Made by a program: the position numbers and the translations under genes. The notes beneath the pieces were generated by a model, which saw nothing but the letters and a program-made list of their open reading frames with translations, searched no databases and was not told where the DNA came from. Source: an uncultured bacterium (GTDB lineage: Bacteria; Bacillota_I; Bacilli_A; RF39; UBA660). From it: DNA of 45,045 nt. Location: assembly GCA_949288335.1 (NCBI GenBank), contig CASEJU010000013.1, positions 1 to 45,045 on the forward strand. Direction: 5' to 3'. Of the stretch, positions 13,169 to 41,015 are shown in pieces (within the stretch, counting starts at the first letter, position 1; each line of letters opens with the position of its first letter).

Positions 13169-13184
13169 TAAATAGGTGATTAAT

Positions 13185-14168
13185 ATGGGATTATTTAGTA
13201 AATTAAAAGATGTTTTTAAAAAAGAAAGTAAACAAGAAGATAAAAGTATAGCAACTTATGAAAAAGGTCTTTCTAAAACAAGACGAAGTTTTGTTAATAA
13301 GTTAGCTAATTTATCAAAAGAATATAAAGAAATAAATGATAATTATTTTGAAGAGTTAGAAGAACTTTTAATTAACGCCGATATCGGAGTTAATACGGTT
13401 ATGGATTTTATGGATAAACTTCAAGTAAGAATAGCAAAAGAAAAGATAAAAAATCCTGAAGAATTAACCGAGATAATCGTAGATGAACTATTTATAATAT
13501 ACGTAAATGATGATATTTTATCAAATAAAATTAATTATAATGATAATGGCCCAACCGTTATTTTGTTTGTTGGGGTAAATGGTGTTGGTAAAACAACAAC
13601 GATTGCAAAACTTGCTTCTAAGTTTAAAAAAGAAAAAAAGAAAGTGCTTTTGGTTGCGGCTGATACCTTTAGAGCGGGAGCCGTTGAACAATTGGTTGCT
13701 TGGGGAGAAAAAATTGGTTGCAACGTAGTTAAAGACGAGAGTACAACGGATCCAGCTAGCGTTGTTTATCAAGGACTTAAAAAGGCAAAAGAAGAAGGTT
13801 ATGACTTGGTTTTAATTGATACCGCAGGTCGTCTTCAAAACCAAGTTAATCTTATGAAAGAGTTGGAAAAAATAAACAACGTAGCAAATAAGATTATCCC
13901 ATCAGCCCCTCATGAAACTTTTTTAGTAATTGATGCTACAACGGGACAAAACGGAATTAGTCAGGCCAAGGCGTTTAAGGAAATTACCAATCTAACCGGA
14001 ATAGTATTAACCAAGTTAGATGGTACTGCCAAAGGGGGTATAGTCCTTGCCATTAAAGAAGAGGTAGGAATACCAGTAAGATACATTGGTTTAGGAGAAA
14101 AACAAGAGGACTTAGAGACGTTTGATATAGAAAAATATATATATGGATTATTTAAGGATATGATGTAA
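13185..14168 (+). CDS. ftsY: Signal recognition particle receptor FtsY
   Basis: SRP GTPase NG domain (GVNGVGKTTTIAKLA, DTAGRL, TKLDGTAKGG). The likely start is ATG 13185 (MGLFSKLK) rather than GTG 13176, which lies inside the SD. Confidence 0.95.
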   Translation: MGLFSKLKDVFKKESKQEDKSIATYEKGLSKTRRSFVNKLANLSKEYKEINDNYFEELEELLINADIGVNTVMDFMDKLQVRIAKEKIKNPEELTEIIVDELFIIYVNDDILSNKINYNDNGPTVILFVGVNGVGKTTTIAKLASKFKKEKKKVLLVAADTFRAGAVEQLVAWGEKIGCNVVKDESTTDPASVVYQGLKKAKEEGYDLVLIDTAGRLQNQVNLMKELEKINNVANKIIPSAPHETFLVIDATTGQNGISQAKAFKEITNLTGIVLTKLDGTAKGGIVLAIKEEVGIPVRYIGLGEKQEDLETFDIEKYIYGLFKDMM

Positions 14169-14169
14169 T

Positions 14170-14466
14170 ATGGAAACAAGGGATTATTTAATTATATTAT
14201 ATGATTATTATTCAGAACTTTTTTCAGAGGAAAATAAACGGTATTTTGAGGATTATTATTTTGATAACCTTTCACTAGCAGAAATCGCAGAAAATGCTTC
14301 TGTTAGCAGGAATAACGTTCATAAACATATAAAAAGTATTGAGGAAAAACTTTTGTTTTATGAAGAAAAATTGCATTTATATAAAAAGGATATAATGCTA
14401 AAAGAAAGACTAAATGAAATAAAAGATGAAAAAATACGAAAATTAGTGGAAAAAATTTTCGATTAA
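14170..14466 (+). CDS. ylxM: YlxM/UPF0122 putative HTH protein associated with the SRP operon
   Basis: 98 aa. It resembles B. subtilis YlxM (LxDxYxxLLxxxQRxYxxLYYxDDLSLxEIAExxxVSRQAVxDxIKRxExxLxxYEEKL) and sits in the conserved position between ftsY and ffh. Confidence 0.85.
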   Translation: METRDYLIILYDYYSELFSEENKRYFEDYYFDNLSLAEIAENASVSRNNVHKHIKSIEEKLLFYEEKLHLYKKDIMLKERLNEIKDEKIRKLVEKIFD

Positions 14467-14506
14467 TGATATAATAAACATGTTAAGATAAAAAAGGAGT
14501 TGTGTT

Positions 14507-14719
14507 ATGGCTGCAAATACAAAAACTACAAAAAAGAAAAGTTCAAATCCAGTAGGAAGACCAAAGAAAAAATATGGTGCGGAAACCCTTATGGATAACA
14601 AAAAAAGTTTCAAGTTAAATAATAACAACGTGGTACTAGATAAGTTTGCTGATGCTTTAATACTTATGGCGGTAGCATTAGTTGTTGCATGTTTAGTTTT
14701 ATTTTTTGCTGTTAAGTAA
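14507..14719 (+). CDS. Small tail-anchored membrane protein with a basic N-terminus containing an AT-hook-like PVGRPKKK motif (70 aa)
   Basis: The SD aaggag lies 8 nt upstream of ATG 14507. A C-terminal hydrophobic segment (ALILMAVALVVACLVLFFAV) is present, and a terminator follows. Confidence 0.5.
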   Translation: MAANTKTTKKKSSNPVGRPKKKYGAETLMDNKKSFKLNNNNVVLDKFADALILMAVALVVACLVLFFAVK

Positions 14720-14744
14720 AACATAAATAACATATATTGAAACG

Positions 14745-14769
14745 AACTAGATTAAGTCTAGTTTTTTTG
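14745..14769 (+). terminator. Rho-independent terminator between the ylxM/small ORF and ffh
   Basis: Stem aactaga (14745-14751) / tctagtt (14757-14763) with a 5-nt loop, then a T7 run. Confidence 0.65.
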
Positions 14770-14776
14770 TTATAAT
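14768..14776 (+). promoter_or_regulatory. Extended -10 promoter element of ffh
   Basis: TGtTATAAT. SD GGTGAT (14783-14788) lies 6 nt downstream. Confidence 0.5.
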
Positions 14777-14792
14777 TAAAAAGGTGATTAAT

Positions 14793-16100
14793 ATGTTTGA
14801 AAGTTTAACTGAAAAATTAGAGAACGCGGTTAATAAAATAAAAGGTTATGGAAAAATAACCGAAGATAATATTACGGATGCAATGCGTGAGGTAAGGCTT
14901 GCGCTTTTAGAAGCTGACGTTAACTATAAAGTTGTTAAAGAGTTTACTAACAAAGTAAAAGAAAAAGCCCTAGGTGAAGAGGTTAAAAAAAGCTTAAAAC
15001 CAGGTGATGTTTTTTTAAAAATATTAAAAGATGAATTACTTTCATTACTTGGTGATGGTGCGAGTGAACTTAATTTAAAAGATAATCCTAGCATTATAAT
15101 GTTAGTTGGTTTACAAGGTTCTGGTAAGACTACTACGATTGGAAAGCTAGCTAACTTACTTAGAAAGAAAAACGCTAAAAAGCCAATGCTTATCGCTGCT
15201 GATGTATATCGTCCGGCCGCGATAGACCAGTTAAAAAAGCTAGGAAAAGAGTTAAATATAGAAGTATATGAAGAAGGCAAGGCAAATGCCGTTTCCATTG
15301 TAAAAAACGGAATTAACAAAGCTGAAGAAAATGGATATGATTTGGTATTAATTGATACTGCGGGGCGATTACACGTTGATGAAAAACTAATGGATGAATT
15401 AAAAAGCATAAATGATAGTGTAAAACCAAATGAAATATTATTAGTAATTGATGCGATGATTGGACAAGATGCGATAAACGTAATTAATGGTTTTAATGAT
15501 GCTTTACCACTTACTGGTACCATCTTAACTAAAATGGATGGTGATACAAAAGGTGGTGTTGCACTTTCTGCAAGACATTTAACTGGCGTTCCTATTAAGT
15601 TTATTGGTACGTCTGAAAAGTTAGATGGATTAGCAAAATTTGATCCGGATCGAATGGTTTCAAGAATCCTTGGCAATGGCGACATTATGTCAATAATTGA
15701 AAAAGCAGAAAGTGTTATAGATGAAAAAGAAGCAATGTCTACCGCTAAAAAAATACAGTCTGGTAAAATGGATTTAGAAGATTTTTTATCACAGTTAAAA
15801 CAGATTAAAAAATTAGGCCCGTTGGAAAATTTACTTAAATTACTTCCAGGAGCAAGAAAAATGGGACTTAATAAAATAAGTATAGATCCTAAGCAATTTA
15901 GTTCTTTAGAAGCAATAATATCTTCTATGACCCCAAAGGAAAGACGAAATCCAGAAATAATAAAATCTTCTAGAAAGCAAAGAATAGCAAATGGTAGCGG
16001 AACAACGGTAAATGATGTAAACAAACTACTTACTCAGTTTGAACAAATGAAAAAAATGATGAAAATGATGAAAAACGGTAACTTTAAAATGCCATTTTAA
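14793..16100 (+). CDS. ffh: Signal recognition particle protein Ffh (SRP54)
   Basis: NG domain (GLQGSGKTTTIGKLA, DTAGRL, TKMDGDTKGG) plus a Met-rich M domain (FEQMKKMMKMMK). The start is ATG 14793 (MFESLTEKL). Confidence 0.97.
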   Translation: MFESLTEKLENAVNKIKGYGKITEDNITDAMREVRLALLEADVNYKVVKEFTNKVKEKALGEEVKKSLKPGDVFLKILKDELLSLLGDGASELNLKDNPSIIMLVGLQGSGKTTTIGKLANLLRKKNAKKPMLIAADVYRPAAIDQLKKLGKELNIEVYEEGKANAVSIVKNGINKAEENGYDLVLIDTAGRLHVDEKLMDELKSINDSVKPNEILLVIDAMIGQDAINVINGFNDALPLTGTILTKMDGDTKGGVALSARHLTGVPIKFIGTSEKLDGLAKFDPDRMVSRILGNGDIMSIIEKAESVIDEKEAMSTAKKIQSGKMDLEDFLSQLKQIKKLGPLENLLKLLPGARKMGLNKISIDPKQFSSLEAIISSMTPKERRNPEIIKSSRKQRIANGSGTTVNDVNKLLTQFEQMKKMMKMMKNGNFKMPF

Positions 16101-29690: not shown

Positions 29691-30347
29691 ATGTATATTG
29701 ATTTAGATAAAATAAAAAGAGATTTTAAAAGCGGCACAAAAGATAAAAAATTGCCTATGGAAGAAATCTATAAATTAAAGAGTCAAGGTATGTCATATAG
29801 AAAAATAGCAGAAAAGTATGATTGTAATTATGATACGATAAGGCGAAGATTAACGAAATATTGTGAGCAAAATAATTTAGAAATTCTAAAAGTTAAAAGT
29901 GGTCCAAAACAAAAGACTTTACCTATGAAAGAAATATATGAATTAAAAAGCAAGGGACAAACGTATGAAGAAATAGCAGAAAAATATAATTGTTCTGCCA
30001 TGACAATATTAAGAAGATTAACGAAATATTGTGAGCAAAAAAATTTAGAAATTCCAAAAAATAAAGAATTACCAATAGAAGAAATCTATAAATTAAAGAG
30101 TCAAGGTATGTCATATAGAAAGATAGCAGAAAAACATGATTGTTCATACGGGACAATAAGACAAAGATTAATAGAATATGAGGATGAACTTATTTTAAGA
30201 AATAAATATTTAGAGATATTATTATATGATTTTAATAAAATCATAGATAACGTTTTAAATAAAACAATCGGGTCTTTTTACGATGATAAAGAGAATCAAA
30301 AGCAAGATGATTATTCATTTATAAAAAATAAAAGTCGCTTAAATTAA
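29691..30347 (+). CDS. Protein made of three tandem resolvase/IS30-type helix-turn-helix modules (218 aa), with no catalytic domain
   Basis: LP(M/I)(E/K)EIYxLKSxGxxYxxIAEKxxCxxxTIxxRL occurs three times, starting near 29751, 29919 and 30069. SD ggtga precedes ATG 29691. Confidence 0.75.
   Translation: MYIDLDKIKRDFKSGTKDKKLPMEEIYKLKSQGMSYRKIAEKYDCNYDTIRRRLTKYCEQNNLEILKVKSGPKQKTLPMKEIYELKSKGQTYEEIAEKYNCSAMTILRRLTKYCEQKNLEIPKNKELPIEEIYKLKSQGMSYRKIAEKHDCSYGTIRQRLIEYEDELILRNKYLEILLYDFNKIIDNVLNKTIGSFYDDKENQKQDDYSFIKNKSRLN
29751..30188 (+). repeat. Three intragenic tandem repeats (about 150-170 nt each) with mosaic near-identical stretches
   Basis: Units 1 and 3 share gaagaaatctataaattaaagagtcaaggtatgtcatatagaaa(a/g)atagcagaaaa. 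Units 1 and 2 share agattaacgaaatattgtgagcaaaa(t/a)aatttagaaattc. Confidence 0.9.
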
Positions 30348-30381: not shown

Positions 30382-30436
30382 TCTCTTTTTTTTATTTTCT
30401 AATAGTGATTAAATGATATTACTAGGAGGAATTAAG

Positions 30437-30754
30437 TTGCTAAAGGTATTAATGGAGTTTAGAAAAGGAGTACTTTTCGTAAGATTATTTGGAACGCTTA
30501 ATGAAAATACAATTAAAACGTTTGAAGTCGAAGTTAAGGAGGTGATTATAGAAGCTGGGATAAAGTACGTTGTTTTAAACGTCGATAATTTAGATAGTGT
30601 ATCAAATGATGGGGTAAAAGAAATTAAAAGGCTAAAAAGAATGGTTGAAAAAACCGAGGGTAAGTTTTTCTTGTTCGGCGGAGAAGTAAAGGAACTTAAA
30701 TCACTTGTTAATTTAGAAAACGAACTAAAGGTTTTTGAAAGGGTTGTGATATAG
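30437..30754 (+). CDS. spoIIAA: STAS-domain anti-sigma-factor antagonist (SpoIIAA-like)
   Basis: Aligns with B. subtilis SpoIIAA (VLFVRLFGTLNENT / IKYVVLNVDNL...DG / GKFFLFGG..VKEL). TTG 30437 fits SD taggagga (30423-30430). ATG 30413 and ATG 30452 are alternatives. Confidence 0.8.
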   Translation: MLKVLMEFRKGVLFVRLFGTLNENTIKTFEVEVKEVIIEAGIKYVVLNVDNLDSVSNDGVKEIKRLKRMVEKTEGKFFLFGGEVKELKSLVNLENELKVFERVVI

Positions 30755-31425
30755 TGATAGAATATTCTTGCAAGCTAGATGAAGTAATTAGACAAAACAG
30801 TAATTTAGTTTATGGTGTTTGTGCTAAATATAATAATTATTTTGATAAAGAAGATTTATATCAAGAAGGTAAGATGGGTCTAATTGATGCGTATAAAAAC
30901 TTTGATAAAACTAAAGGAGTAAAGTTTTCTACTTATGCCTTTCCTTACATAGTAGGAAGGGTAAGTAATTACGTAAGGGAAAATAAAAACATAAAGGTAA
31001 GTAAAGATTTGGCAAGGTTAGGTAAAAAAATAAATGAATATATTGACAAACATTTTGAGGTGCGTGGGTATAAACCAAGTATTCATGACATTGCCTTAAT
31101 GTTAGAAGTAAAAGAAGAAAAAGTAATAAGTGCTTTAGAAGCCTGTCAAAAAATTAAAAGTTTAGATGAACAAATAAATGATGATGAGAAAAAAATTACG
31201 CTTCTTGATGTAACAGCTTTTAATCAGAATGTTTCAAATGAACAAATGATTGATTTAAAAGAAGCCTTTAATTATCTAAGTGATGAAGAAAAAAACTTAC
31301 TGATAAAAAGATACTATAATGATTTTACCCAAAGTGAAGTAGCAAAAGATATGGGTGTAAATCAGGTTTATGTATCAAGAATGGAAAAAAAGGCCTTGTC
31401 AAAAATGAAAAGTAAGATGACATAA
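30754..31425 (+). CDS. sigF: Sporulation-type group 3 sigma factor (SigF-like)
   Basis: FSTYAFPYIVGRVSNYVRENKNIKVSKDLARLGKKI and LLIKRYYNDFTQSEVAKDMGVNQVYVSRMEKKAL align closely with B. subtilis SigF regions 2.4/3.0 and 4.2. The GTG start overlaps the spoIIAA stop (TAGTG). Confidence 0.85.
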   Translation: MIEYSCKLDEVIRQNSNLVYGVCAKYNNYFDKEDLYQEGKMGLIDAYKNFDKTKGVKFSTYAFPYIVGRVSNYVRENKNIKVSKDLARLGKKINEYIDKHFEVRGYKPSIHDIALMLEVKEEKVISALEACQKIKSLDEQINDDEKKITLLDVTAFNQNVSNEQMIDLKEAFNYLSDEEKNLLIKRYYNDFTQSEVAKDMGVNQVYVSRMEKKALSKMKSKMT

Positions 31426-31462: not shown

Positions 31463-31516
31463 AAATATTTTGTGGTATACTATTAACTGATATTAAACCT
31501 TATGAAAGGAGTTATT

Positions 31517-32230
31517 ATGCTAGAATTAAAAAACGTATGTTTTAAAAGGGATAATAAAATTATTCTTGATAATATAAATTTAAAGCTTGATGAAACTAAG
31601 TTTTACGTAATAACAGGTCCTAACGGATCTGGTAAATCAACGCTTGCTAAAATAATAATGGGGCTTGTTAAACCAGATTCTGGACGCGTTATTTTTAACG
31701 GAGAGGACATAACGGAAAAAAGTGTTGATGAGCGTGCTAAAATGGGCATTAGTTTTGCTTTTCAGCAGCCTGTTAAATTTAAGGGAATAACCGTTTATGA
31801 TATTCTTAAAATAGCAACCAAAAAGAAGTTAACTAAAAGTGATGCGTGCGCTATTTTATCTAAAGTTGGATTATGTGCAATGGATTACATTGATAGAGAA
31901 GTTGACGCATCACTTTCCGGTGGTGAGTTAAAAAGAATAGAAATCGTAAGTGTTATTGCCATGAATCCTAAGGTAGCTATTTTTGATGAGCCTGAAGCGG
32001 GAATAGATTTATGGAGCTTTGAGAATTTAAACGAGGTGTTTAAAGAAATAGAAGCATCTTATAGTGGAATAACCATTGTTATTTCACATCAAGAACGCAT
32101 TTTAAACATCGCTGACCAAATAATATTAATTGTAAATGGGAAAATAAAAGATACCGGTTCTAAAGATAAAATGTTAAGTGAGTTATTTAATAAAAAATGT
32201 TCTAAAGGAGGTAGATGCTATGAACGATAA
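31517..32230 (+). CDS. sufC: Fe-S cluster assembly ATPase SufC
   Basis: ABC ATPase with GPNGSGKST, LSGGELKR and FDEPEAGIDL motifs. Its partner is a SufB/D-type gene. ATG 31517 follows SD gaaaggag, with extended -10 TGgTATACT at 31473-31481. Confidence 0.88.
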   Translation: MLELKNVCFKRDNKIILDNINLKLDETKFYVITGPNGSGKSTLAKIIMGLVKPDSGRVIFNGEDITEKSVDERAKMGISFAFQQPVKFKGITVYDILKIATKKKLTKSDACAILSKVGLCAMDYIDREVDASLSGGELKRIEIVSVIAMNPKVAIFDEPEAGIDLWSFENLNEVFKEIEASYSGITIVISHQERILNIADQIILIVNGKIKDTGSKDKMLSELFNKKCSKGGRCYER

Positions 32231-33137
32231 GGATAAAGCTCTTTTAGATGAAGTGGATACAAGTATTTTTAAAGAAAACGAAGCGGTAAACGTAAGAAAA
32301 AACGGTAAGATGGTAACTAGAAAAATAAATGATTACATAGATATTAAAACAAAGGAAGATGGTAAAGGAATTGATGTTTACGTAAAAGAAAACACGCTTT
32401 TAGGTGTTGTTCATATACCTGTTATCATTACCGAAAGTGGCCTTAAGGACGTTGTTTATAATGATTTTCACATCGGTAAAAACTCAAACGTTGTAATACT
32501 TGCAGGCTGTGGTATTCATAATGATAAGCATGAAGATAGCCGTCATGACGGCATTCACCGGTTTTTCATAGAAGAAAATGCTAAGGTTAAGTATACGGAA
32601 AAGCATTATGCCGAAGGCGCAGGTTCTGGTAAAAAGGTTCTTAATCCATATACGGAAATAAACTTAGGAAAAAACGCTAGTATGACGATGGACTCCGTTC
32701 AAATAAAAGGAGTAACATCAACAAAAAGAATTACTAAGGCAAACTTAGAAGAAGGCGCAACCCTTGTTATTAAAGAAAAAATATTAACGAGTGATGATCA
32801 ATTCGCTAAAACTTCATTTATGGTTGATTTAAAAGGTGATGGTGCATCATGTGAGGTTACTTCTCGCTCGGTTGCAACGGATAAGTCGTACCAAGAGTTT
32901 AAATCAAAAGTGATTGGTGATAAAAATTGTTATGCACACATCTCTTGTGATGCCATAATAAAAGATGATGCGAAGGTAAAAGCAGTGCCAGAAATATACG
33001 CGAAAAACAAAAACGCAAACCTTATTCATGAAGCATACATAGGTAAAATACAAGGAGAACAACTAATGAAGTTAATGAGTCTTGGCTTAAGTGAAAAACA
33101 GGCCGAAGAAGAAATTATTAAAGGTTTTTTAAAATAA
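32220..33137 (+). CDS. SufB/SufD-family Fe-S assembly scaffold protein, short form (about 305 aa)
   Basis: Beta-helix repeats and a C-terminal HEAYIGKIQGEQLMKLMSLGLSEKQAEEEIIKGF, typical of SufB/SufD. ATG 32220 follows SD aaggagg and overlaps the sufC end. Confidence 0.85.
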   Translation: MNDKDKALLDEVDTSIFKENEAVNVRKNGKMVTRKINDYIDIKTKEDGKGIDVYVKENTLLGVVHIPVIITESGLKDVVYNDFHIGKNSNVVILAGCGIHNDKHEDSRHDGIHRFFIEENAKVKYTEKHYAEGAGSGKKVLNPYTEINLGKNASMTMDSVQIKGVTSTKRITKANLEEGATLVIKEKILTSDDQFAKTSFMVDLKGDGASCEVTSRSVATDKSYQEFKSKVIGDKNCYAHISCDAIIKDDAKVKAVPEIYAKNKNANLIHEAYIGKIQGEQLMKLMSLGLSEKQAEEEIIKGFLK

Positions 33138-33221
33138 TGTTAAGGATAATGGTGTCATATCATTATTCTTTTTATGATATAATTATATTGTATTATTAAT
33201 TATGTTAGGAGTTTTTAAACA

Positions 33222-34616
33222 ATGTATGATGTTATTATAATTGGCGGTGGACCAGCCGGGTTATTTACGGCTTATAAACTTATAACCAATAACAAAAACT
33301 TAAAGATTTTAATGCTTGATCGTGGCCTTTTAGCACAAAAAAGAAAATGTCCTCTTAGTTTAAACAACACAAAATGTTTAAACTGTAATCCTTGCAGTAT
33401 TTTATCTGGGTATGGTGGTGCTGGAACTTTTTCTGATGGAAAACTTAACTTTACTCCTAAACTTGGTAAATCTGATTTATTTAAGTACGCATCCAAAGAT
33501 AAAGCATATGAATTAATAAATGAGGTAGAAGAAATATTAAATGGTTTTAAAATGGATTCTAAAACTTATCCTACTAACATGGATGAGGCATTACGTTTAA
33601 AAAGTAAGATTGCCAAAACGGGAGCTAATCTTATGATTATAAAGCAAAAACATTTGGGTTCTGATAAACTTCCTTTATACATAAAGAAAATAACTGATTT
33701 TCTTATCGAAAATGGAGTTGTGATAACTGAGGAGGCGGATGTTTTTGACGTAGAAAGCACGCTTAAAGATAGGCACGTTGTATCTTATAAAAGAAGAGGT
33801 AAAACCTATAAAAAAGAAAGTAAAAACGTTGTTATTGCACCTGGTAGAACTGGTGCTAAATGGGTGCAAAATCTGGCTGATTACTACAAGATACCATATG
33901 ATTCTAAAAGTATTGAAATAGGTGTTAGAGTAGAGGTTAGAAAAGAATTGTTAGATGATATATGCTCGGTAATATATGATCCTTCAATCTTTATTAAAAC
34001 TCCAACTTATGCTGATGAAATAAGAACGTTTTGTACTAATCCCGGTGGTTTTGTTGCAAAAGAAAATTATTACGGATATATATGCGTTAATGGGCATGCT
34101 CTAAAAGTTAAAAAGTCAAATAATAGTAATTTTGCTTTTATATCTAAGGTTAACTTAACTGAGCCGGTTACTAACACAAGACAATACGGGGAATCAATTG
34201 CTAAAATAGCAAACGTTTTAGGGGATGGAAAACCTATTATTCAAACCTTAAGAGATTTAAAACACGGACGAAGATCTACGATTTCTAGAATAAATAAAGG
34301 TTTTATATCACCAACGTTAAATGATTGTGTAGCAGGTGATTTAGCCCTTGTTTTACCACACCGAATAATAATAAATATTTTAGAAGGATTAGAAAAATTA
34401 GATGAGATAATACCTGGTGTTAATAACGATGAAACCCTTTTATATGGACCTGAAATAAAGTTTTTTAGTAATGAAATAACAACTAATAACAACATGAAAT
34501 TAAATAGTTATGACGTTTATTTTATAGGTGATGGTGCTGGTAAATCTGGTAACATCGTAACCGCTTGTGCAACTGGTTTAATAGCAGCTGATGATATTTT
34601 AAAAAGGTATAAATAA
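33222..34616 (+). CDS. FAD-dependent oxidoreductase (COG2509-like uncharacterised dehydrogenase)
   Basis: N-terminal YDVIIIGGGPAGLF dinucleotide-binding motif, a Cys cluster CPLSLNNTKCLNCNPCSILSGYGGAGTFSDGKLN, and a C-terminal GDGAG motif. Confidence 0.8.
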   Translation: MYDVIIIGGGPAGLFTAYKLITNNKNLKILMLDRGLLAQKRKCPLSLNNTKCLNCNPCSILSGYGGAGTFSDGKLNFTPKLGKSDLFKYASKDKAYELINEVEEILNGFKMDSKTYPTNMDEALRLKSKIAKTGANLMIIKQKHLGSDKLPLYIKKITDFLIENGVVITEEADVFDVESTLKDRHVVSYKRRGKTYKKESKNVVIAPGRTGAKWVQNLADYYKIPYDSKSIEIGVRVEVRKELLDDICSVIYDPSIFIKTPTYADEIRTFCTNPGGFVAKENYYGYICVNGHALKVKKSNNSNFAFISKVNLTEPVTNTRQYGESIAKIANVLGDGKPIIQTLRDLKHGRRSTISRINKGFISPTLNDCVAGDLALVLPHRIIINILEGLEKLDEIIPGVNNDETLLYGPEIKFFSNEITTNNNMKLNSYDVYFIGDGAGKSGNIVTACATGLIAADDILKRYK

Positions 34617-34619
34617 TAA

Positions 34620-34650
34620 AAAGTTTGGTATAAATTGCCAAACTTTTTTT
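34620..34650 (+). terminator. Rho-independent terminator
   Basis: aaagtttgg / ccaaacttt stem with a 9-nt loop, then a T7 run. Confidence 0.75.
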
Positions 34651-34657
34651 CATATTA
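34628..34657 (+). promoter_or_regulatory. Forespore SigG/SigF-type promoter of the spoVA operon
   Basis: GTATA (34628-34632), 18-nt spacer, CATATTA (34651-34657). This fits GHATR-N18-CATxHTA. The -35 lies in the loop of the upstream terminator. Confidence 0.55.
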
Positions 34658-34672
34658 ATACTGGTGATAAAA

Positions 34673-35113
34673 ATGAACAAGGAAAGTTATAAAAAGTTAA
34701 CAAGTAAGATTATTCCAAAAGAAAACAAAGTAAAAAATGGTATAATTTCTTTTTTCGTTGGAGGATTAATTGGCTTAATTGGTCAGATAATGGTATCCGT
34801 ACTTGAAAATAATTTTGATCTAGCTCATAAAGATGCAACATCAATAATGATTGTAATATTAATTTTTATTGCATCACTTTTAACCGCGATAGGTTTTTTT
34901 GATAATTTGGTTTCTAAGGCTAAAGCAGGTCTTATTGTTCCGATAACCGGGTTTGCTCACGCGATGACATCTTCCATGCTTGATTATAAAAAAGAGGGCT
35001 TTGTAACCGGAATAGGTGCTAATGCTTTTAAACTTACCGGTAGCGTAATTTTATATGGTGTTGTATCAGCTTATATATTTGGAACAATAAGATACTTATT
35101 TTTTGGAGGTTAA
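34673..35113 (+). CDS. spoVAC: Stage V sporulation protein AC
   Basis: Close similarity to B. subtilis SpoVAC (GLIVPITGFAHAMTSSMLDYKKEGFVTGIGANAFKLTGSVILYG). The start is ATG 34673, after SD ggtga. Confidence 0.92.
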   Translation: MNKESYKKLTSKIIPKENKVKNGIISFFVGGLIGLIGQIMVSVLENNFDLAHKDATSIMIVILIFIASLLTAIGFFDNLVSKAKAGLIVPITGFAHAMTSSMLDYKKEGFVTGIGANAFKLTGSVILYGVVSAYIFGTIRYLFFGG

Positions 35114-35116
35114 TAT

Positions 35117-36112
35117 ATGACGATAGAATTTAATAATGTTTATGTAAAAAGTGTATCAGCCGTAGCAGGACATGATGAAAAGGAAGGAACCTTTGGAAAA
35201 CTTTATGATAAAACTTATGATGATTATTATGCTAATGAAAAAACCTTTGAGCAAGCAGAAATTAAAATGATTGAAGATGCAAGTGATATAGCGCTTAAAA
35301 AAGCAAGTTATAAAATGGATGATATAAACTTTATAATTGGTTCAGACCTTCTTAACCAAATAACGGCAAACGCGTATTCATCAGTTAAGTTTAAAAGACC
35401 GTTTTTAGGTGTTTATAACGCTTGTGCAAGTTTATGTGAAGAATTTATAATAGCATCAAGTATGCTTCAAAACAAAGAGGTTAATAACGCTCTTTTAAAC
35501 ATCTCATCACATAATATGACGGCCGAAAGACAGTATCGAAATCCAGTTGAGTATGGATGCCCTAAACCTTTAAGGTCTACTTTTACGGTAACCGGGGCGG
35601 CATCATGCGTTTTAACAAAGGAAAAAACAGATATTAAAGTTACAAACGCAACCGTTGGAACACCAACTGATATGGGAATAACTGATCCTTATGACATGGG
35701 CTCGGTTATGGCACCTTCTGCTGCTGAAGTTTTATTTAGTCATTTAAAAAACACCAATACCAAGCCGGAAGACTATGACCTTATCCTAACTGGTGATTTA
35801 GGAGTTTATGGAAAACAAATATTAATAGAGTATTTTAAAAGTGCTTATGGTATTAACATTGAAGGTAATTTAGAGGACTCATCATCCATTATTTATGATA
35901 GAAAAAAGCAAACCAAGGTAAACGCCGGAGGATCAGGCCCGTGCTGCCTTGCCTTAGTTTTTTATACCGACATTTTAAACAGGATGAAAAAAGGAGAGTT
36001 AAAAAAGGTTTTGCTTATTGCAACCGGTGCTTTAATGAGTCCTACCATGAATAACCAAAAACTATCTATTCCTAGTGTTTCTCACGCGGTATGTTTGGAG
36101 GCGATTAAATGA
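35117..36112 (+). CDS. spoVAD: Stage V sporulation protein AD (thiolase-like fold)
   Basis: 331 aa with a typical SpoVAD N-terminus (...SVSAVAGHDEKEGTFGKLYDKTYDD). It sits between spoVAC and spoVAEb. Confidence 0.9.
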   Translation: MTIEFNNVYVKSVSAVAGHDEKEGTFGKLYDKTYDDYYANEKTFEQAEIKMIEDASDIALKKASYKMDDINFIIGSDLLNQITANAYSSVKFKRPFLGVYNACASLCEEFIIASSMLQNKEVNNALLNISSHNMTAERQYRNPVEYGCPKPLRSTFTVTGAASCVLTKEKTDIKVTNATVGTPTDMGITDPYDMGSVMAPSAAEVLFSHLKNTNTKPEDYDLILTGDLGVYGKQILIEYFKSAYGINIEGNLEDSSSIIYDRKKQTKVNAGGSGPCCLALVFYTDILNRMKKGELKKVLLIATGALMSPTMNNQKLSIPSVSHAVCLEAIK

Positions 36113-36459
36113 TATTTTTATATTCGTTTTTATTCTGCGGAGTAGTTTGTCTAATAGGACAGGTAATTTTAGATAACACCAAGCTTACCCCGGGACATGT
36201 TACAAGTATGTTTGTTGTTATTGGTGCTTTTTTAGATTCCTTTGGATTATATGATAAGTTTTTATCTTGGTTTGGAGCAGGAGCATCAGTTCCAATAACT
36301 TCTTTTGGACATTCTTTAATTCATGGCGCACTTGCAAAAGCTCATGAATCAGGCGTTTTAGGTTTACTTGCTGGTATGTTTAGTTTAACTTCCGTTGGAA
36401 TAGTTGCTGCAATCGTGTTTGGCTTTATATTAACCCTTATATTTAAAGCAAAAGACTAG
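36109..36459 (+). CDS. spoVAE: Stage V sporulation protein AEb
   Basis: 116-aa membrane protein paralogous to SpoVAC (GAGASVPITSFGHSLIHGA). It overlaps spoVAD by 4 nt. Confidence 0.9.
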   Translation: MIFLYSFLFCGVVCLIGQVILDNTKLTPGHVTSMFVVIGAFLDSFGLYDKFLSWFGAGASVPITSFGHSLIHGALAKAHESGVLGLLAGMFSLTSVGIVAAIVFGFILTLIFKAKD

Positions 36460-36506
36460 TCTTTTGTTTTTTTTTATGTTATTATTTCATATAGAGGAAA
36501 AGCACT

Positions 36507-39260
36507 ATGAAAGAATTAAACAATGATTTTAAAATACCTTTATTTGATAGTAAGATAAAATTTTATTTTTCTTTGCTTTTTATATCAATAAATGATTATG
36601 TTATTTTAACGAATTATTATGGAGATAACATAAACATATTTGATTATGAACATCATGATGATACTTATGATAAAGACGCGTTAAAATTACGCTTTGTTTT
36701 TGAAAACATAAAGTGGAACAATGATAAAATAGAACTAAAAGATAAGGTAATAATGAGGATGTTTTCTAAAGAAGAGATAGTAAGTTATTATGATAAATAT
36801 AGTCTTGTTAATGCTAATTTTAACGTTAGTGATCCAATTTCCCAAGAGCGTTTTTACATTTATATGTTACTAGAAAAAGTACGCGAGAAAAAAGAACTTG
36901 AGTATGGAACAATATATGAACTTTTTGATACGTTTAGTGATGAGGAAATACTAAATGCGGTTGCTAACCTTGATTTTGAGGATAAACGTACCTTTATTGA
37001 ACTTTTTGGCTTAAAAGGTGACATACCATTTGAGATAAATTCGAATGACCACGTAAAAAATGACATATTAATAAAGTTATACAGCTACATGCTTTTAAAA
37101 AGAGATGAGGCTGATATTTCGTCAATTATAAGAAACATAAAAGAAAAAAGTGCTTATGAATATAGTTTTTATGATTATATTAGGATGCTTTGCTCTGATA
37201 TGGATTTAAGTGATGAATTTATTTTTGAGATGTTTGTTAAGATGGATTATAATTCAAAAGAGCGTATTAAAGAAGTTTTTGGAGATAAACTAAATAAAAA
37301 AGTAAAACCTCCAAAAGATAAAGAATTTAAAAAAGTAACGGAAACGTTAAGCGTTATAGTTAAGGTAAATAAAGAATACCGTAAAAGAAAAGAAAGTATA
37401 AAGACAAACATAAAAAAAGTTGGATTAAATAATAAAACTGAAAATAAAGAAAAAACAAAAGAACAAAAAAAGGAACCAAAAGAAGAGGTAAAAGAAAAGA
37501 AAAGTAATTCAGAAGAAAATAAAAAGAAAAAAGAAGAAGTAAATAAAGGTGAAAATAAAAAACAAAAATTAAATGATTTTTTACTAGAAAATAACTTAGA
37601 TAAAAAAGATTTTGAAAAAGCATTATCATTATTAGATGGTTTAAATAAAAGTGTAATAGTACTTTATTATGGTGTTAAAAATAGTCCTTTAAATGTAGAA
37701 GGAATATCACAAAAACTTGGAAAACCATTAGAAGATATTTTAATTATTTTAAATAAAGCTGAAGAAAAAATTGTAAGTTTAATTAAAACTAGAAAAATAA
37801 ATAAATCTAAAAAAGAAGATAAGCAACCTAAAAAAGAAGAGGATAAAAAAGAAAAGATAAAAGCATCTGACAAATTATATAATATAATTCAAACCAGCAT
37901 GGTTGCATCATCAACTTTAGAAGCTGCGATGCTTACGCTTGATAATACGGAAAGAACCATTTTAAATGCTGTTTTACACGCAAAGGAAAACGCTTTAAAA
38001 GAAGTATCATTAAGTCTTAACATAAAAGAAGAGCAGGCAAAGGATATATATGAAAGTGCATCTTTAAAAATCATTTCTTTTTTAGAATTAGATAAAAAGG
38101 AAGAAAAAAAAGAAGAACAAATACCACCTAAAAAAGAAGAACAAATACCACCTGAAAAAGAAGAAAAACCAAAAGAAGAGCTAAAAGAAAGCGATAAGAA
38201 GAAAGAAAACTTAGGAAAAGCATCTTCACTTAATGAGTTTTTAAAAGAAACCGGTTTAACAAAAATGGAATTTTTTAATAGTTTTTCGAAGTTAGATGGT
38301 TTTAGTAAAAGCGTTTTAACAATGTATTTAGGTCTTAATGGTCACTTTTCATCTACTTTTGAAATAGCTAAAAAATACGGAAGAACAACAAAGGATATAG
38401 AACGCGTTATATCTTCTTCGAAGGATTTTATAGTAAAAGAATCAAATAAAGTAGACAAGATTAAATTAAATGACTTTCTTAATAAAAGCAAAATGAGTAT
38501 GGATGATTTTAAAGAGTCTTTAAAGAATGTATCTTCGTTAAATAAGAATTTATTAATGGATTATTTTGGTGTTGGCACAAAGGCCTTAGAAGTGGACGTA
38601 TTATCAAGAAAGTATGGTAAGACGCCAAAGGAAATTAATGCCATGGTAGGTGCAGCATTAAATGAGATATCAACTAAAAAAAGTAAGAAAAAGGATAATG
38701 ATTTGTCTGATAAATTGACTAAATTTTTAACCGTTAACAAAATAACAAAAGAACAATTCATGAGTGCTTTAGAGCATATTACACCAGAAGAGAAAATGAT
38801 GATTTCCATGTATTTTGGACTTAATGGTTTGCAGATGAGTATTCCTCAAATAGCGCTTAAAACAAAAACTAATTCAATTTTTATTAAAGAAAGTTTAGAA
38901 AAAGCGTTAAAGCAAATCAATTCTTTGGCAAAAAACAAAGATTTAGGTAAGAATACTAGGGAAGAAAAATATCAAAAAGTTAAAAGGCAGATTTTAAAAG
39001 CATCAAGTATATTATACCAAGATCCTTCGTTTATGATTTTCGTTGGAACTAATCCGCGGTTTTCAAATCTTTTATCAATAATTAACATGAATTTAAGCAT
39101 TGATGATGCAGCTAAATTTTTAAATGTTTCATCCGATGCATTAATTAATGATTTAATGTCACTTGAAGTTATGTGTGAAGAGTTTACGAAAAACGCATCA
39201 ACTAAAAATAGTAGTGGATTTCAAGATGAAGAGAATTTAAAAAGACAAAGAAGTATATAA
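36507..39260 (+). CDS. Large (917 aa) protein with at least five tandem sigma-70-region-4/YlxM-like HTH modules separated by K/E-rich linkers
   Basis: Repeated pattern: (K/S)L(N/T)xFL...(D/E)F...L...(K/E)xxxhxxY(F/L)G(L/V)xxxxxxxxxIxxKxGxxxxxIxxxxxxAxxxI. SD agagga precedes ATG 36507. Confidence 0.7.
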   Translation: MKELNNDFKIPLFDSKIKFYFSLLFISINDYVILTNYYGDNINIFDYEHHDDTYDKDALKLRFVFENIKWNNDKIELKDKVIMRMFSKEEIVSYYDKYSLVNANFNVSDPISQERFYIYMLLEKVREKKELEYGTIYELFDTFSDEEILNAVANLDFEDKRTFIELFGLKGDIPFEINSNDHVKNDILIKLYSYMLLKRDEADISSIIRNIKEKSAYEYSFYDYIRMLCSDMDLSDEFIFEMFVKMDYNSKERIKEVFGDKLNKKVKPPKDKEFKKVTETLSVIVKVNKEYRKRKESIKTNIKKVGLNNKTENKEKTKEQKKEPKEEVKEKKSNSEENKKKKEEVNKGENKKQKLNDFLLENNLDKKDFEKALSLLDGLNKSVIVLYYGVKNSPLNVEGISQKLGKPLEDILIILNKAEEKIVSLIKTRKINKSKKEDKQPKKEEDKKEKIKASDKLYNIIQTSMVASSTLEAAMLTLDNTERTILNAVLHAKENALKEVSLSLNIKEEQAKDIYESASLKIISFLELDKKEEKKEEQIPPKKEEQIPPEKEEKPKEELKESDKKKENLGKASSLNEFLKETGLTKMEFFNSFSKLDGFSKSVLTMYLGLNGHFSSTFEIAKKYGRTTKDIERVISSSKDFIVKESNKVDKIKLNDFLNKSKMSMDDFKESLKNVSSLNKNLLMDYFGVGTKALEVDVLSRKYGKTPKEINAMVGAALNEISTKKSKKKDNDLSDKLTKFLTVNKITKEQFMSALEHITPEEKMMISMYFGLNGLQMSIPQIALKTKTNSIFIKESLEKALKQINSLAKNKDLGKNTREEKYQKVKRQILKASSILYQDPSFMIFVGTNPRFSNLLSIINMNLSIDDAAKFLNVSSDALINDLMSLEVMCEEFTKNASTKNSSGFQDEENLKRQRSI
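37566..38930 (+). repeat. Array of divergent protein-level repeats (about 70-75 aa each) inside the 917-aa CDS
   Basis: Approximate module positions are 37566-37790, 37872-38088, 38226-38440, 38463-38680 and 38711-38927. Weaker copies lie upstream (about 36900-37030, 37160-37290) and downstream (about 39090-39180). Confidence 0.7.
38106..38153 (+). repeat. Perfect 24-bp tandem duplication (KKEEQIPP x2)
   Basis: aaaaaagaagaacaaataccacct occurs at 38106-38129 and again at 38130-38153. Confidence 0.95.
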
Positions 39261-39292
39261 TAAAAGGTATTAACGTAAAAAGTTAACACCTT

Positions 39293-40411
39293 TTATTTTT
39301 TTAAACTGCTTTGAAACTCATTATTAACATCGTAATTTGTTAGCAGCGAATAAACGCTATTTGCCTTAAAATCAATCTTAAATAAATTGTCATATTCTTT
39401 TTTATATTTTGTGATAATAGGAATATCAATTTCGTTTTTTATTTCCTTTAAGATGTTTTTCCCTTTACCACTAAAACCCAAAACTCTTAGATATTTTATT
39501 GTTAAATCATTGTCTTCTTTTTTTATTTTACAAACTATATGAAGAAGCATTCTTTGTATTTTATTATAAGAATATCTTTTTGACTTAACTTTTAAAATTA
39601 AATCATTCACATCTTTAGCATCATTTATTACCTTTTTTAACTTGTTTTCTATTCCCTCATCAACGTCTAGATAACAATTTAAGTTGGTGCTAGTTATGAT
39701 TTGATACTTTATAATGTAAAAATACTTATCATAATCTATCTTACTTAAGTATTTTATTACTTCTTTTGGCATTGCTTTAACTATTAATTTTTTATTTTCT
39801 ATGTTTTTTCTAATTGAGGTTGCACTAGTTATTTCTTTATTTATTTTTTCTTCATGATAATCGTTAGTTCTTTTTATACTTATTGGTTTTATTTTACTTT
39901 TTGTTTTTTTAATACATCTTACATATTCAAGTGCTAAAACATCGTTTGGCTTATTTATTGTTATTCCAGAAATTTCCTTAAGGGCAAGTGAACATGCTAA
40001 AGGATAATTAACACCTTTATCAACGTATTTTTTAACTAAGTTTTCATAATTGTCATCGTCAGTTAAGTTTACAACTTCTTCAAGCATCGTAACGTCGTTT
40101 GACTCCGAACCAAACACCAAGTAATCACATTTTAGGTAATTTAATATATCAATGGCGCCTTTGGCGTAGTATCCGGCGGACTGACATGAAAATAAAAAGG
40201 GAAGTTCTACTACTAAATCATAACCATAATTAAGCGCTATTTTAGTTTTGTCCCATTTATTTATAACGGATATTTCACCTCTTTGGGTAAAGTTTCCTAT
40301 TAATATTAATATTAAGCAAGCATCAGGAAACATTTGCTTTACCTTACTTAAATGATATACGTGCCCGTTATGAAATGGATTATATTCCGCAATTACACCA
40401 ACTTTAATCAT
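39293..40411 (-). CDS. tmcAL: YlbM/TmcAL-family nucleotidyltransferase (tRNA(Met) cytidine acetate ligase-like)
   Basis: The N-terminus VGVIAEYNPFHNGHVYHL and VVELPFLFSCQSA...LVFGSE match B. subtilis YlbM. 372 aa. Confidence 0.82.
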   Translation of the reverse strand: MIKVGVIAEYNPFHNGHVYHLSKVKQMFPDACLILILIGNFTQRGEISVINKWDKTKIALNYGYDLVVELPFLFSCQSAGYYAKGAIDILNYLKCDYLVFGSESNDVTMLEEVVNLTDDDNYENLVKKYVDKGVNYPLACSLALKEISGITINKPNDVLALEYVRCIKKTKSKIKPISIKRTNDYHEEKINKEITSATSIRKNIENKKLIVKAMPKEVIKYLSKIDYDKYFYIIKYQIITSTNLNCYLDVDEGIENKLKKVINDAKDVNDLILKVKSKRYSYNKIQRMLLHIVCKIKKEDNDLTIKYLRVLGFSGKGKNILKEIKNEIDIPIITKYKKEYDNLFKIDFKANSVYSLLTNYDVNNEFQSSLKK

Positions 40412-40760: not shown

Positions 40761-41015
40761 TTATTTAATTTTATTTTTATACATATTAAACATTTTAATT
40801 ATGGCATCATATGTTTTATCAGATACTTTCCCTTTTAAAGTACCTAGCACTTTTAAACCATCACCTTTATATACTTCCTGCCAGTTTTTCATGATGAAAT
40901 CATAAATAATTTTATCTTCACCTTGTTTTAGAGGCGTGTTATTTTTATTTGCAAAGTCATTTATGTCTTTTAATGATAATTTTTTTAAGTATTCTTTAAT
41001 TAAAACTTCATACAT
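40761..41015 (-). CDS. Small helical protein, possibly DUF2624 (YqfT-like)
   Basis: 84 aa. The pattern LSLKDINDFANKNNTPLKQGEDKIIYDFI ... VSDKTYDAIIKMFNMY resembles Bacillus YqfT-type proteins. This is a weak call from memory. Confidence 0.45.
   Translation of the reverse strand: MYEVLIKEYLKKLSLKDINDFANKNNTPLKQGEDKIIYDFIMKNWQEVYKGDGLKVLGTLKGKVSDKTYDAIIKMFNMYKNKIK

Follow-up and report, generated by a model that had tools for sequence, protein, structure and literature searches.

We have identified a protein of 917 amino acids (aa) in which a domain of bacterial sigma factors, region 4, is repeated in tandem. The protein is encoded on the forward strand of a 45,045-nt stretch of contig CASEJU010000013.1 from an uncultured bacterium (hereafter the window, ~28% G+C over its whole length), and its gene begins 47 nt past spoVAE. 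The product is a real, conserved, “beads-on-a-string” protein made from one gene, with an N-terminal domain (N-domain), five independently folding modules derived from sigma region 4 (M1 to M5) and a C-terminal domain. Its family is a divergent, spoVA-linked branch of a wider class that we call poly-sigma-4 proteins. The region 4 domain itself is known, while the multi-copy architecture and the N-domain are undescribed in the literature and databases searched. We tentatively suggest that the protein may act as a scaffold or decoy for other proteins during spore formation.

Region 4 is among the best-understood modules of bacterial transcription and is regarded as a single-copy part of sigma factors. 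Here it is found copied 5-13 times per chain across hundreds of protein clusters. In the window family it is detached from the rest of the sigma factor and stripped of its DNA-reading residues, each copy having kept a conserved surface of its own. The family is locked to the genes of the spoVA dipicolinate channel, and sister arrays lie beside ylbD, ylbE and ylbF. The source organisms are uncultured Bacilli resembling Erysipelotrichia-type spore formers, whose sporulation machinery is reduced and poorly understood. At minimum, the findings bring out a large class of proteins without annotation and a domain that lacks detectable relatives, and they correct the automatic label “specialized sigma subunit”. 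If the proteins do regulate or scaffold forespore processes, they would constitute a level of sporulation control peculiar to one lineage of abundant gut bacteria and a clear case of a DNA-binding domain turned protein-interaction repeat.

A tandem array of sigma region 4 modules

A first-pass annotation of the window had placed an open reading frame (ORF) of 917 aa right after the spoVA genes, and its coordinates (36507-39260, forward strand) were reproduced exactly, with an ATG start and 917 amino acid codons. A search of 5.8 billion proteins yielded 173 relatives of 813-928 aa; among the 120 of these that were listed, about 15 are non-redundant at 85% identity, and these 15 align with the window protein from end to end. 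Fusion of several adjacent genes, an artefact that the annotation itself had raised, is ruled out, as is a pseudogene, by the uninterrupted frame and by the ~15 non-redundant full-length orthologues, which come from many independent contigs.

In order to delimit the repeats, one hidden Markov model (HMM) per module was built from the orthologous copies in the 15 non-redundant homologues and run against the window protein. M1 (aa 354-426), M3 (574-645), M4 (653-724) and M5 (736-808) recognize one another with scores of 20-50 bits (independent E-values of 1e-8 to 1e-17). M2 (aa 455-527) is divergent at the HMM level, and hhalign matches it over its full length to the profile of the other four (97.7%, E 2e-12). 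This cross-recognition, together with the hhalign match, establishes five modules of ~72 aa, in line with the “at least five” modules of ~70 aa read earlier by eye, and the computed consensus is the one that had been written down then (L..FL, D/E-F, L..L...K......Y(F/L)G(L/V), I..K.G, A...I). Common to all modules is a hydrophobic core comprising L, L and N in helix 1 followed by F, L, K, Y-x-G and I. AlphaFold2 (AF2) models give five helices per module, namely an extra N-terminal amphipathic helix (K-L-N-x-F-L) and the four helices of region 4.

Self-BLASTP of the protein gave no off-diagonal matches. The modules are 20-40% identical to one another at the protein level, and are therefore considered to be old duplications. 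Tandem repeats at the DNA level are confined to the linkers between modules, and were rejected as the source of the modules on that ground. A branch of the family with proteins of 813-867 aa is devoid of M3, indicating that whole modules are gained or lost. The N-domain holds one or two degenerate half-modules, at aa 144-171 and 232-259. The first of these matches the region 4.1 half of a module (hhalign 73%, E 3e-5); aa 232-259 and, near the C-terminus, aa 859-885 reach 22% probability. The degenerate copies that had been proposed for the N-terminal third and the C-terminus are thus supported in part. At aa 136-156, the motif IYELFDTFSDEEILNAVANLD is very similar to the way modules begin in distant arrays, as in IYKLFPKYSKRQVLDAIEELD of the array protein P0155.

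The homology to sigma region 4 that had been proposed from the consensus is supported by the searches that follow. The Pfam family Sigma70_r4 (PF04545) matches the whole protein at 29.2 bits, summed over two stretches, against a gathering threshold of 24.1. Scanned singly, M1 scores 18.4 bits, M2 scores 13 bits and M3-M5 fall under the reporting level, and for this reason the protein is classed as a divergent Sigma70_r4 member. When a profile of 58 orthologous modules (A2) was searched against PDB sequences, the nine best matches were all region 4 of SigA, RpoD or HrdB (E 1.4e-4 to 4.4e-3), including 8gzg_F (E 1.4e-4) and the isolated T. maritima sigma-4 structure 1tty_A (E 2.6e-3). These alignments cover module positions 9-69, corresponding to regions 4.1-4.2 with the (R/Y)(F/Y)GL motif and the helix-turn-helix (HTH). 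Foldseek searches of the PDB with the full-length model returned sigma factors for all of the top 50 hits, with weak scores (E 0.07-0.6, TM about 0.2), as is expected when a floppy chain of several domains is the query. Lastly, relatives that share the module score 42-249 bits on Sigma70_r4 (P0136, 210; P0140, 183; P0185, 249). The assignment to sigma-4 is thus sound. Unlike SigA/RpoD, which carry region 4 in single copy, the window protein has five copies in tandem, each with the extra N-terminal helix.

The remainder of a primary sigma factor, regions 1.2, 2 and 3, is absent from the window protein. Pfam detected neither Sigma70_r2 nor Sigma70_r3 in it, hhalign of the N-domain profile against sigma 2/3 of SigF and of array-bearing sigma factors gave <1%, and Foldseek found no sigma-factor fold match for the N-domain model. 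Lacking regions 2 and 3, the protein cannot bind core polymerase in the manner of a sigma factor, and a true sigma factor was rejected on the Pfam and hhalign results. The relatives are nevertheless named “DNA-directed RNA polymerase specialized sigma subunit” by automatic annotation, some members of the wider class do have region 2, and an apparent frameshift lies at the extreme 3′ end of the gene. Taken together with the missing regions 2 and 3, the conserved frame and the fact that the frameshift touches only about the last 12 residues, these points make it hardly credible that the gene encodes an unusual sigma factor or is an artefact. Searches with PHROG gave weak matches alone (E 0.0015-0.0017), one of them to a phage “RNA polymerase sigma factor” family.

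Other HTH families fit the protein less well. The first-pass annotation had called the modules YlxM-like, and in the family sense this does not hold, since the window protein has no match to UPF0122 (PF04297). YlxM/p13, encoded beside ffh, is a distantly related tetrahelical HTH protein of the sigma-4 superfamily, and some array relatives weakly match UPF0122. The genuine YlxM of this genome, used as a control for that claim, is a single-domain protein of 98 aa (14170-14466, UPF0122 75 bits) encoded between ftsY and ffh in the usual signal recognition particle cluster (13176-16100), and it meets the module profile at just E 0.006. GerE has one domain, binds DNA as a dimer and carries a basic recognition helix; the likeness to GerE/LuxR-type regulators extends to the broad HTH superfamily and a sporulation context, and membership was rejected as the GerE profile (PF00196) was unmatched even at E≤10. 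No PADLOC family was matched, and with the PHROG result above this gives no ground for placing the protein among phage or defence proteins. NCBIfam and Pfam revealed no homology to a SpoVA subunit, the sharing with SpoVA being limited to the position after spoVAE.

Modeled with a 17-sequence family alignment, the protein appears as folded helical units (block predicted local distance difference test (pLDDT) values of ~70-90, and of ~70-89 for the modules) joined by linkers with values of ~22-40; the predicted template modeling score (pTM) of 0.34 indicates no fixed inter-domain arrangement. Conservation peaks in the N-domain, at 73% mean column identity; modeled alone, this domain is confidently all-alpha (pLDDT 86.9, pTM 0.67). 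Its sequence gave nothing significant against PDB sequences by phmmer and profile searches (best E 0.014), and its model gave no fold match by Foldseek in the PDB (best E 1.3) or BFVD (best E 0.63). It matches no family in Pfam, NCBIfam, PHROG or PADLOC, and a profile search of the 5.8 billion proteins recovered no relatives outside the family, just fragments of the same family.

Charged residues make up 58-75% of the linkers (aa 299-351, 433-451, 529-570 and 723-733), and disorder is predicted for all four; their K/E-rich makeup agrees with the earlier description of them as K/E-rich and of low complexity. Linker L0 varies in length among orthologues. Linker L2 carries the perfect 24-bp duplication that had been noted, with two tandem copies of AAAAAAGAAGAACAAATACCACCT at 38106-38153. 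A homologue that is 96% identical, P0001, is missing nine residues exactly at this site, and the duplication is therefore a recent slippage event that the protein tolerates. The C-terminal domain has no Pfam match. In the tail, ...EENLKRQRSI closes the window protein and P0001, and the rest of the family has ...EVGR(K/R)Y as its terminus; when one A is deleted from the A5 run at 39239-39243, the window protein ends in NLKDKEVYNKRY*, matching the family tail. Three origins are conceivable for the shift, namely a true and recent frameshift, phase variation, or a homopolymer error common to both sequences.

Recognition helices and proposed function

In E. coli numbering, the residues of region 4.2 that contact the -35 element are R584, E585, R586, R588 and Q589. 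Of 230 modules, just ~10% carry a basic amino acid at the positions that align with the -35-reading arginines. The net charge of the recognition helix (first 12 residues, orthologue mean) is -4.7 in M1, -2.6 in M2, -1.1 in M3, -0.9 in M4 and +0.5 in M5, as opposed to +2 in the sigma-4 reference. Binding to multiple -35-like sites, one of the functions offered in the first-pass annotation, is disfavored by both observations. Because region 2 is absent, the helices are acidic to neutral and the arginine columns are rarely basic, the window protein is no sigma factor, nor does it qualify as a canonical reader of the -35 element; with regions 1.2, 2 and 3 gone and the -35 arginines lost, it can have no sigma-factor activity, and promoter reading is unlikely. 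Residues that are conserved among orthologues yet specific to one module concentrate in two places, the turn and the N-terminal half of the recognition helix.

These features, together with the gene order described below, lead us to propose, as a tentative reading based on sequence, a sporulation-associated multivalent protein-interaction scaffold or decoy; a decoy or scaffold was also among the functions offered in the first-pass annotation. Expression of the array gene would coincide with that of the forespore spoVA genes or come shortly afterwards, and its product would neither initiate transcription nor read -35 elements. The former DNA-reading face of the HTH may have been repurposed in each module for a distinct, specific ligand, most plausibly a protein. 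The array as a whole could then work as a multivalent scaffold or decoy in spore formation, possibly anchored or targeted by the strongly conserved acidic N-domain. Candidate partners are the proteins that dock onto region 4 (the RNA polymerase beta-flap, anti-sigma factors and activators) or the SpoVA complex.

Several points weigh against this proposal. The sporulation role is deduced only from gene order, in a part of the chromosome whose synteny extends broadly through the clade in any case. The gene could also have a vegetative-type promoter of its own, given the conserved hairpin and TGnTATTAT motif ahead of it. With its lysine-rich linkers and basic overall character (net +13, isoelectric point (pI) 8.8), the protein would be equally suited to non-specific nucleic-acid binding, and a mildly basic net charge (+2 to +4) is found in four of the five modules.

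The last two points bear on a rival explanation in which the protein is a multi-HTH DNA binder or nucleoid organizer, whose modules and/or lysine-rich linkers would contact DNA at many places, either to compact or mark the chromosome of the forespore or to read promoter-like elements in tandem. The HTH fold does derive from a DNA-binding domain, linkers L0 and L1 contribute +6 each to the net charge, and M1, M3, M4 and M5 have a pI of ~9; a second, small tandem-HTH protein is encoded nearby (29691-30347). Tandem HTH arrays that bind DNA repeats are also known, such as archaeal Cbp1, which likewise strings several HTH units along one chain by means of linkers. Cbp1, however, belongs to another HTH family and has three units with basic DNA-binding helices, whereas the recognition helices here are strongly acidic in M1 and M2 and about neutral in M3-M5. 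The -35-reading residues are not conserved, the N-domain and M2 are acidic overall, and the linkers contain about as much glutamate as lysine. We consider DNA binding of this kind unlikely, although the lysine-rich linkers could conceivably organize DNA, another function offered in the first-pass annotation.

A more specific form of the scaffold or decoy proposal would make these proteins sigma-4 mimics and new developmental regulators, titrating or scaffolding region 4 dockers (the beta-flap, anti-sigma factors and activators such as Spo0A), with the spoVA-linked family acting in the forespore as part of a rewired control of transcription. We hold this to be a decidedly doubtful possibility. 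Rewired forespore control is conceivable in that spoIIAA and sigF of this clade lack the usual spoIIAB between them. In the window (30413-31425), a spoIIAA-like STAS gene (113 aa) and a SigF-like sigma gene (223 aa) lie directly one after the other, sharing 1 nt; the best NCBIfam match of the latter is SigF at 178.8 bits, under the equivalog cutoff. No spoIIAB was found between the two genes at the locus in the window, L001, L002, L006, L012 or L014, and the arrangement holds for every related locus showing both genes. Turicibacter sanguinis, in contrast, is reported to have spoIIAA, spoIIAB and sigF, plus a tetracistronic spoVAC-AD-AE-AF operon (PMC13492147), such that the array gene stands behind spoVAE here where spoVAF sits there. 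An array gene of this type goes unmentioned in the published accounts of sporulation in Turicibacter and Firmicutes that were consulted.

Sporulation gene linkage and the wider poly-sigma-4 class

Gene order was compared among the window and loci L001, L002-4, L006-7, L012, L013 and L014, given as nine independent loci. All loci of the N-domain family have spoVAC-AD-AE, then the array gene or genes, then a convergent HIGH_NTase1 gene. The spoVAE-array junction is broken in none of them. The sigF-spoVAC junction, in contrast, is broken by sufC, sufBD and FAD-protein genes in the window, by a gene of no recognized family in L012 (317 aa) and L013 (349 aa), and by a 552-aa ORF in L001. In L012 and L013 a second array paralogue is placed behind the first. 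NCBIfam scores of spoVAC, spoVAD and spoVAE are near or somewhat under the equivalog cut-offs, which marks them as divergent sporulation genes.

This linkage could be incidental if the product were a conserved protein with no part in sporulation, its position reflecting general synteny (gpsA ... ileS) and its expression being driven by its own promoter in growing cells. The whole gpsA-ileS region is indeed syntenic between loci, a terminator-like hairpin after spoVAE is conserved and followed by TGnTATTAT before the gene, and P0155 (a sigma-array protein) and P0185 (an array) are in non-sporulation gene contexts, which are uninformative. The spoVAE-array junction, on the other hand, is never broken, whereas sigF-spoVAC is interrupted by three different kinds of insertion; the hairpin, at -8.7 kcal/mol, is weak next to the flanking terminators (-13 to -14 kcal/mol); and arrays have a second, independent link to ylbD/ylbE/ylbF. 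On balance such a housekeeping role seems quite unlikely.

The predicted signals within the locus would permit either read-through from spoVAE or a separate promoter. The gap between spoVAE and the array gene is 45-73 nt, and the core of the 36445-36470 hairpin is invariant in four aligned loci. The hairpins bracketing the four genes reach -14.1 and -13.3 kcal/mol versus -8.7 kcal/mol for the one inside. From this we infer that spoVAC-AD-AE-array would form a four-gene unit with attenuated read-through, although a separate promoter for the array gene is also possible. The sigmaG consensus is GHATR-17/18-CATXHTA, which we take to be fitted by the GTATA-18 nt-CATATTA motif upstream of spoVAC as a forespore-type element; the motif is identical in the window and L006. 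As for a sigmaG/F-type promoter right before the array gene, a candidate (CATATAG) was dropped because it is not conserved between loci. The terminator-plus-promoter-like segment (34618-34657) has moved as a unit with the spoVA-array block.

A second sporulation context was found in three other loci, L008, L010 and L017/18, where pure arrays lie next to ylbD (a coat-protein gene), ylbE and ylbF. Long arrays of 1457 aa in L008, 1027 aa in L010 and 669 aa in L017 are encoded just upstream of ylbD, which ylbE follows in L008 and L010, and a second array gene (347 or 569 aa) comes just before ylbF in L008 and L017; the gene groups span L008 425-6865, L010 570-4266 and L017 7001-11865. Adjacency to a coat-protein gene is one reason to think of a structural or protective spore component that is abundant and non-regulatory, contributing to the core matrix, to hydrophilin-like desiccation tolerance or to a coat layer. 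The charged low-complexity linkers, which vary in length and tolerate slippage, and the expanded, clustered paralogues in L011, L012 and L013 would suit such a component, and Erysipelotrichia spore formers have lost many canonical sporulation genes (bioRxiv 10.1101/2022.02.25.481979). It is difficult to reconcile with the very strong conservation of the N-domain and with orthologous modules that each keep their own conserved surface, which suggest specific recognition rather than bulk, and the 917-aa protein has no signal peptide or homology to coat proteins. We regard a structural role as rather improbable and retain the scaffold or decoy as our working proposal.

The tandem paralogues after spoVAE (two each at L012 4195-10156 and L013 3039-10465) point to lineage-specific expansion. 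At L011 (133-9681), three array genes occur with a gene for a 764-aa protein of no assigned family.

In order to define the wider class, the module profile was searched against 1.84 billion cluster representatives, and 733 proteins matched at E≤1e-3 (85 at E≤1e-10). Among the best 148 of the 733, at least three modules are present in 98, at least five in 47 and at least eight in 17, with a median module spacing of 89 aa and a period of ~80-106 aa. The earlier statement that such domains are normally single-copy therefore understates what databases hold. With poly-sigma-4 proteins taken as those having at least three modules at ~80-106-aa spacing, the window protein belongs to the class with its five. 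The longest arrays have 12-13 modules by a stricter recount (P0136, 1457 aa with 12; P0139, 1722 aa with 13), the HMMER table giving up to 16 matched stretches for the longest. The window family resembles other members (P0136, P0139, P0150, P0155) in module type, period and AT-rich source contigs, and several of those likewise adjoin sporulation genes. It differs from them in that most lack the N-domain, which is present in only six of the best 148, and have far higher Sigma70_r4 scores. All of the sampled loci are 22-29% G+C, and the class occurs in very AT-rich contigs that also bear sporulation genes. The remark in the first-pass annotation that no characterized array was known agrees with our reading of the literature, in which no published account of tandem region 4 arrays was found.

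Three members, P0155, P0240 and P0245, open with a genuine Sigma70_r2, to which P0240 adds r3, and continue with sigma-4 and 2-8 extra sigma-4 modules. P0155 (L015, 7001-12121) is composed of sigma 2, nine sigma-4 copies and TPR, the C-terminal TPR domain being shared with P0240. Based on this architecture, we read the arrays as products of region 4 duplication in real sigma factors; the class would have arisen through tandem duplication of that region, and giants of the P0155 type may represent an intermediate stage in the evolution of pure arrays from sigma factors.

Features and neighboring genes

The features of the array gene and its surroundings are collected in Table 1.

Table 1. Positions of the poly-sigma-4 gene, its domains, predicted signals and adjacent genes in the window
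Feature	Position	Strand	Description and basis
Upstream terminator hairpin	34618-34648	+	-14.1 kcal/mol; overlaps promoter-like motif
GTATA (34628-34632), 18 nt, CATATTA (34651-34657)	34628-34657	+	Forespore-type promoter-like, upstream of spoVAC; putative promoter function
spoVAC-spoVAD-spoVAE block	34664-36459	+	Invariant upstream partners; NCBIfam, synteny
spoVAC	34664-35113	+	NCBIfam
spoVAD	35117-36112	+	NCBIfam
spoVAE	36109-36459	+	NCBIfam
Hairpin over spoVAE stop codon, then T-run	36445-36470	+	Weak intrinsic terminator/attenuator, -8.7 kcal/mol
TGnTATTAT (extended -10-like)	36477-36485	+	Largely conserved in four loci; putative promoter function; sequence reading
Ribosome-binding site AGAGGA	36493-36498	+	Ahead of ATG; largely conserved in four loci; sequence reading
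Whole poly-sigma-4 gene	36507-39260	+	N-domain, five sigma-4-derived modules, C-domain; ORF, homologues, AF2
N-domain, aa 1-298	36507-37400	+	All-alpha, acidic (net -9, pI 5.2); conservation, AF2
Linker L0, aa 299-350	37401-37556	+	K/E-rich, 58% charged, net +6, predicted disordered
Module M1, aa 351-428	37557-37790	+	Five helices, recognition helix strongly acidic; best Pfam Sigma70_r4 stretch aa 372-421
Module M2, aa 453-527	37863-38087	+	Divergent, net charge -4; hhalign 97.7%
Linker L2, aa 528-572	38088-38222	+	K/E/P-rich; carries 24-bp duplication
Module M3, aa 573-647	38223-38447	+	Cross-module HMM, AF2
Module M4, aa 653-722	38463-38672	+	Cross-module HMM, AF2
Module M5, aa 735-810	38709-38936	+	Cross-module HMM, AF2
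C-terminal helical domain, aa 811-899	38937-39203	+	Family-conserved; weak likeness to HTH half of module (22%)
Disordered tail	39204-39260	+	Apparent +1 A in A5 run 39239-39243
Hairpin terminator	39259-39297		-13.3 kcal/mol; between array gene and convergent HIGH_NTase1 gene
HIGH_NTase1 gene	39293-40411	-	Convergent with array gene

An Rfam scan of the window gave nothing. Directly upstream of spoIIAA (29691-30347) is the gene of the 218-aa protein with three tandem HTH units (aa 29-57, 79-112 and 130-160) mentioned above. It matches HTH_23, HTH_38, HTH_7 and Sigma70_r4_2, has a weak NCBIfam match to Cbp1, and meets the module profile at just E 0.002, its HTH units being of another type than the sigma-4 modules. 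Its counterpart in L006 (3751-5019) has 422 aa and many faint HTH matches.

The genes between sigF and spoVAC in the window (31502-34616) encode a sufC-like ABC ATPase, a SufB/D-core protein and a flavin adenine dinucleotide (FAD)-dependent protein. In L002, L006 and L014, spoVAC directly follows sigF. Inserted proteins without a Pfam match on record are encoded at L012 1351-2304 (317 aa), L013 96-1145 (349 aa) and L002 10622-11503 (293 aa); the last of these sits after the array gene, and the 317- and 293-aa proteins are also without an NCBIfam match. On the reverse strand of the window (40761-41015), an 84-aa ORF with no family match lies between the HIGH_NTase1 and PBP genes, and its position is conserved in L002 (85 aa) and L012 (84 aa).

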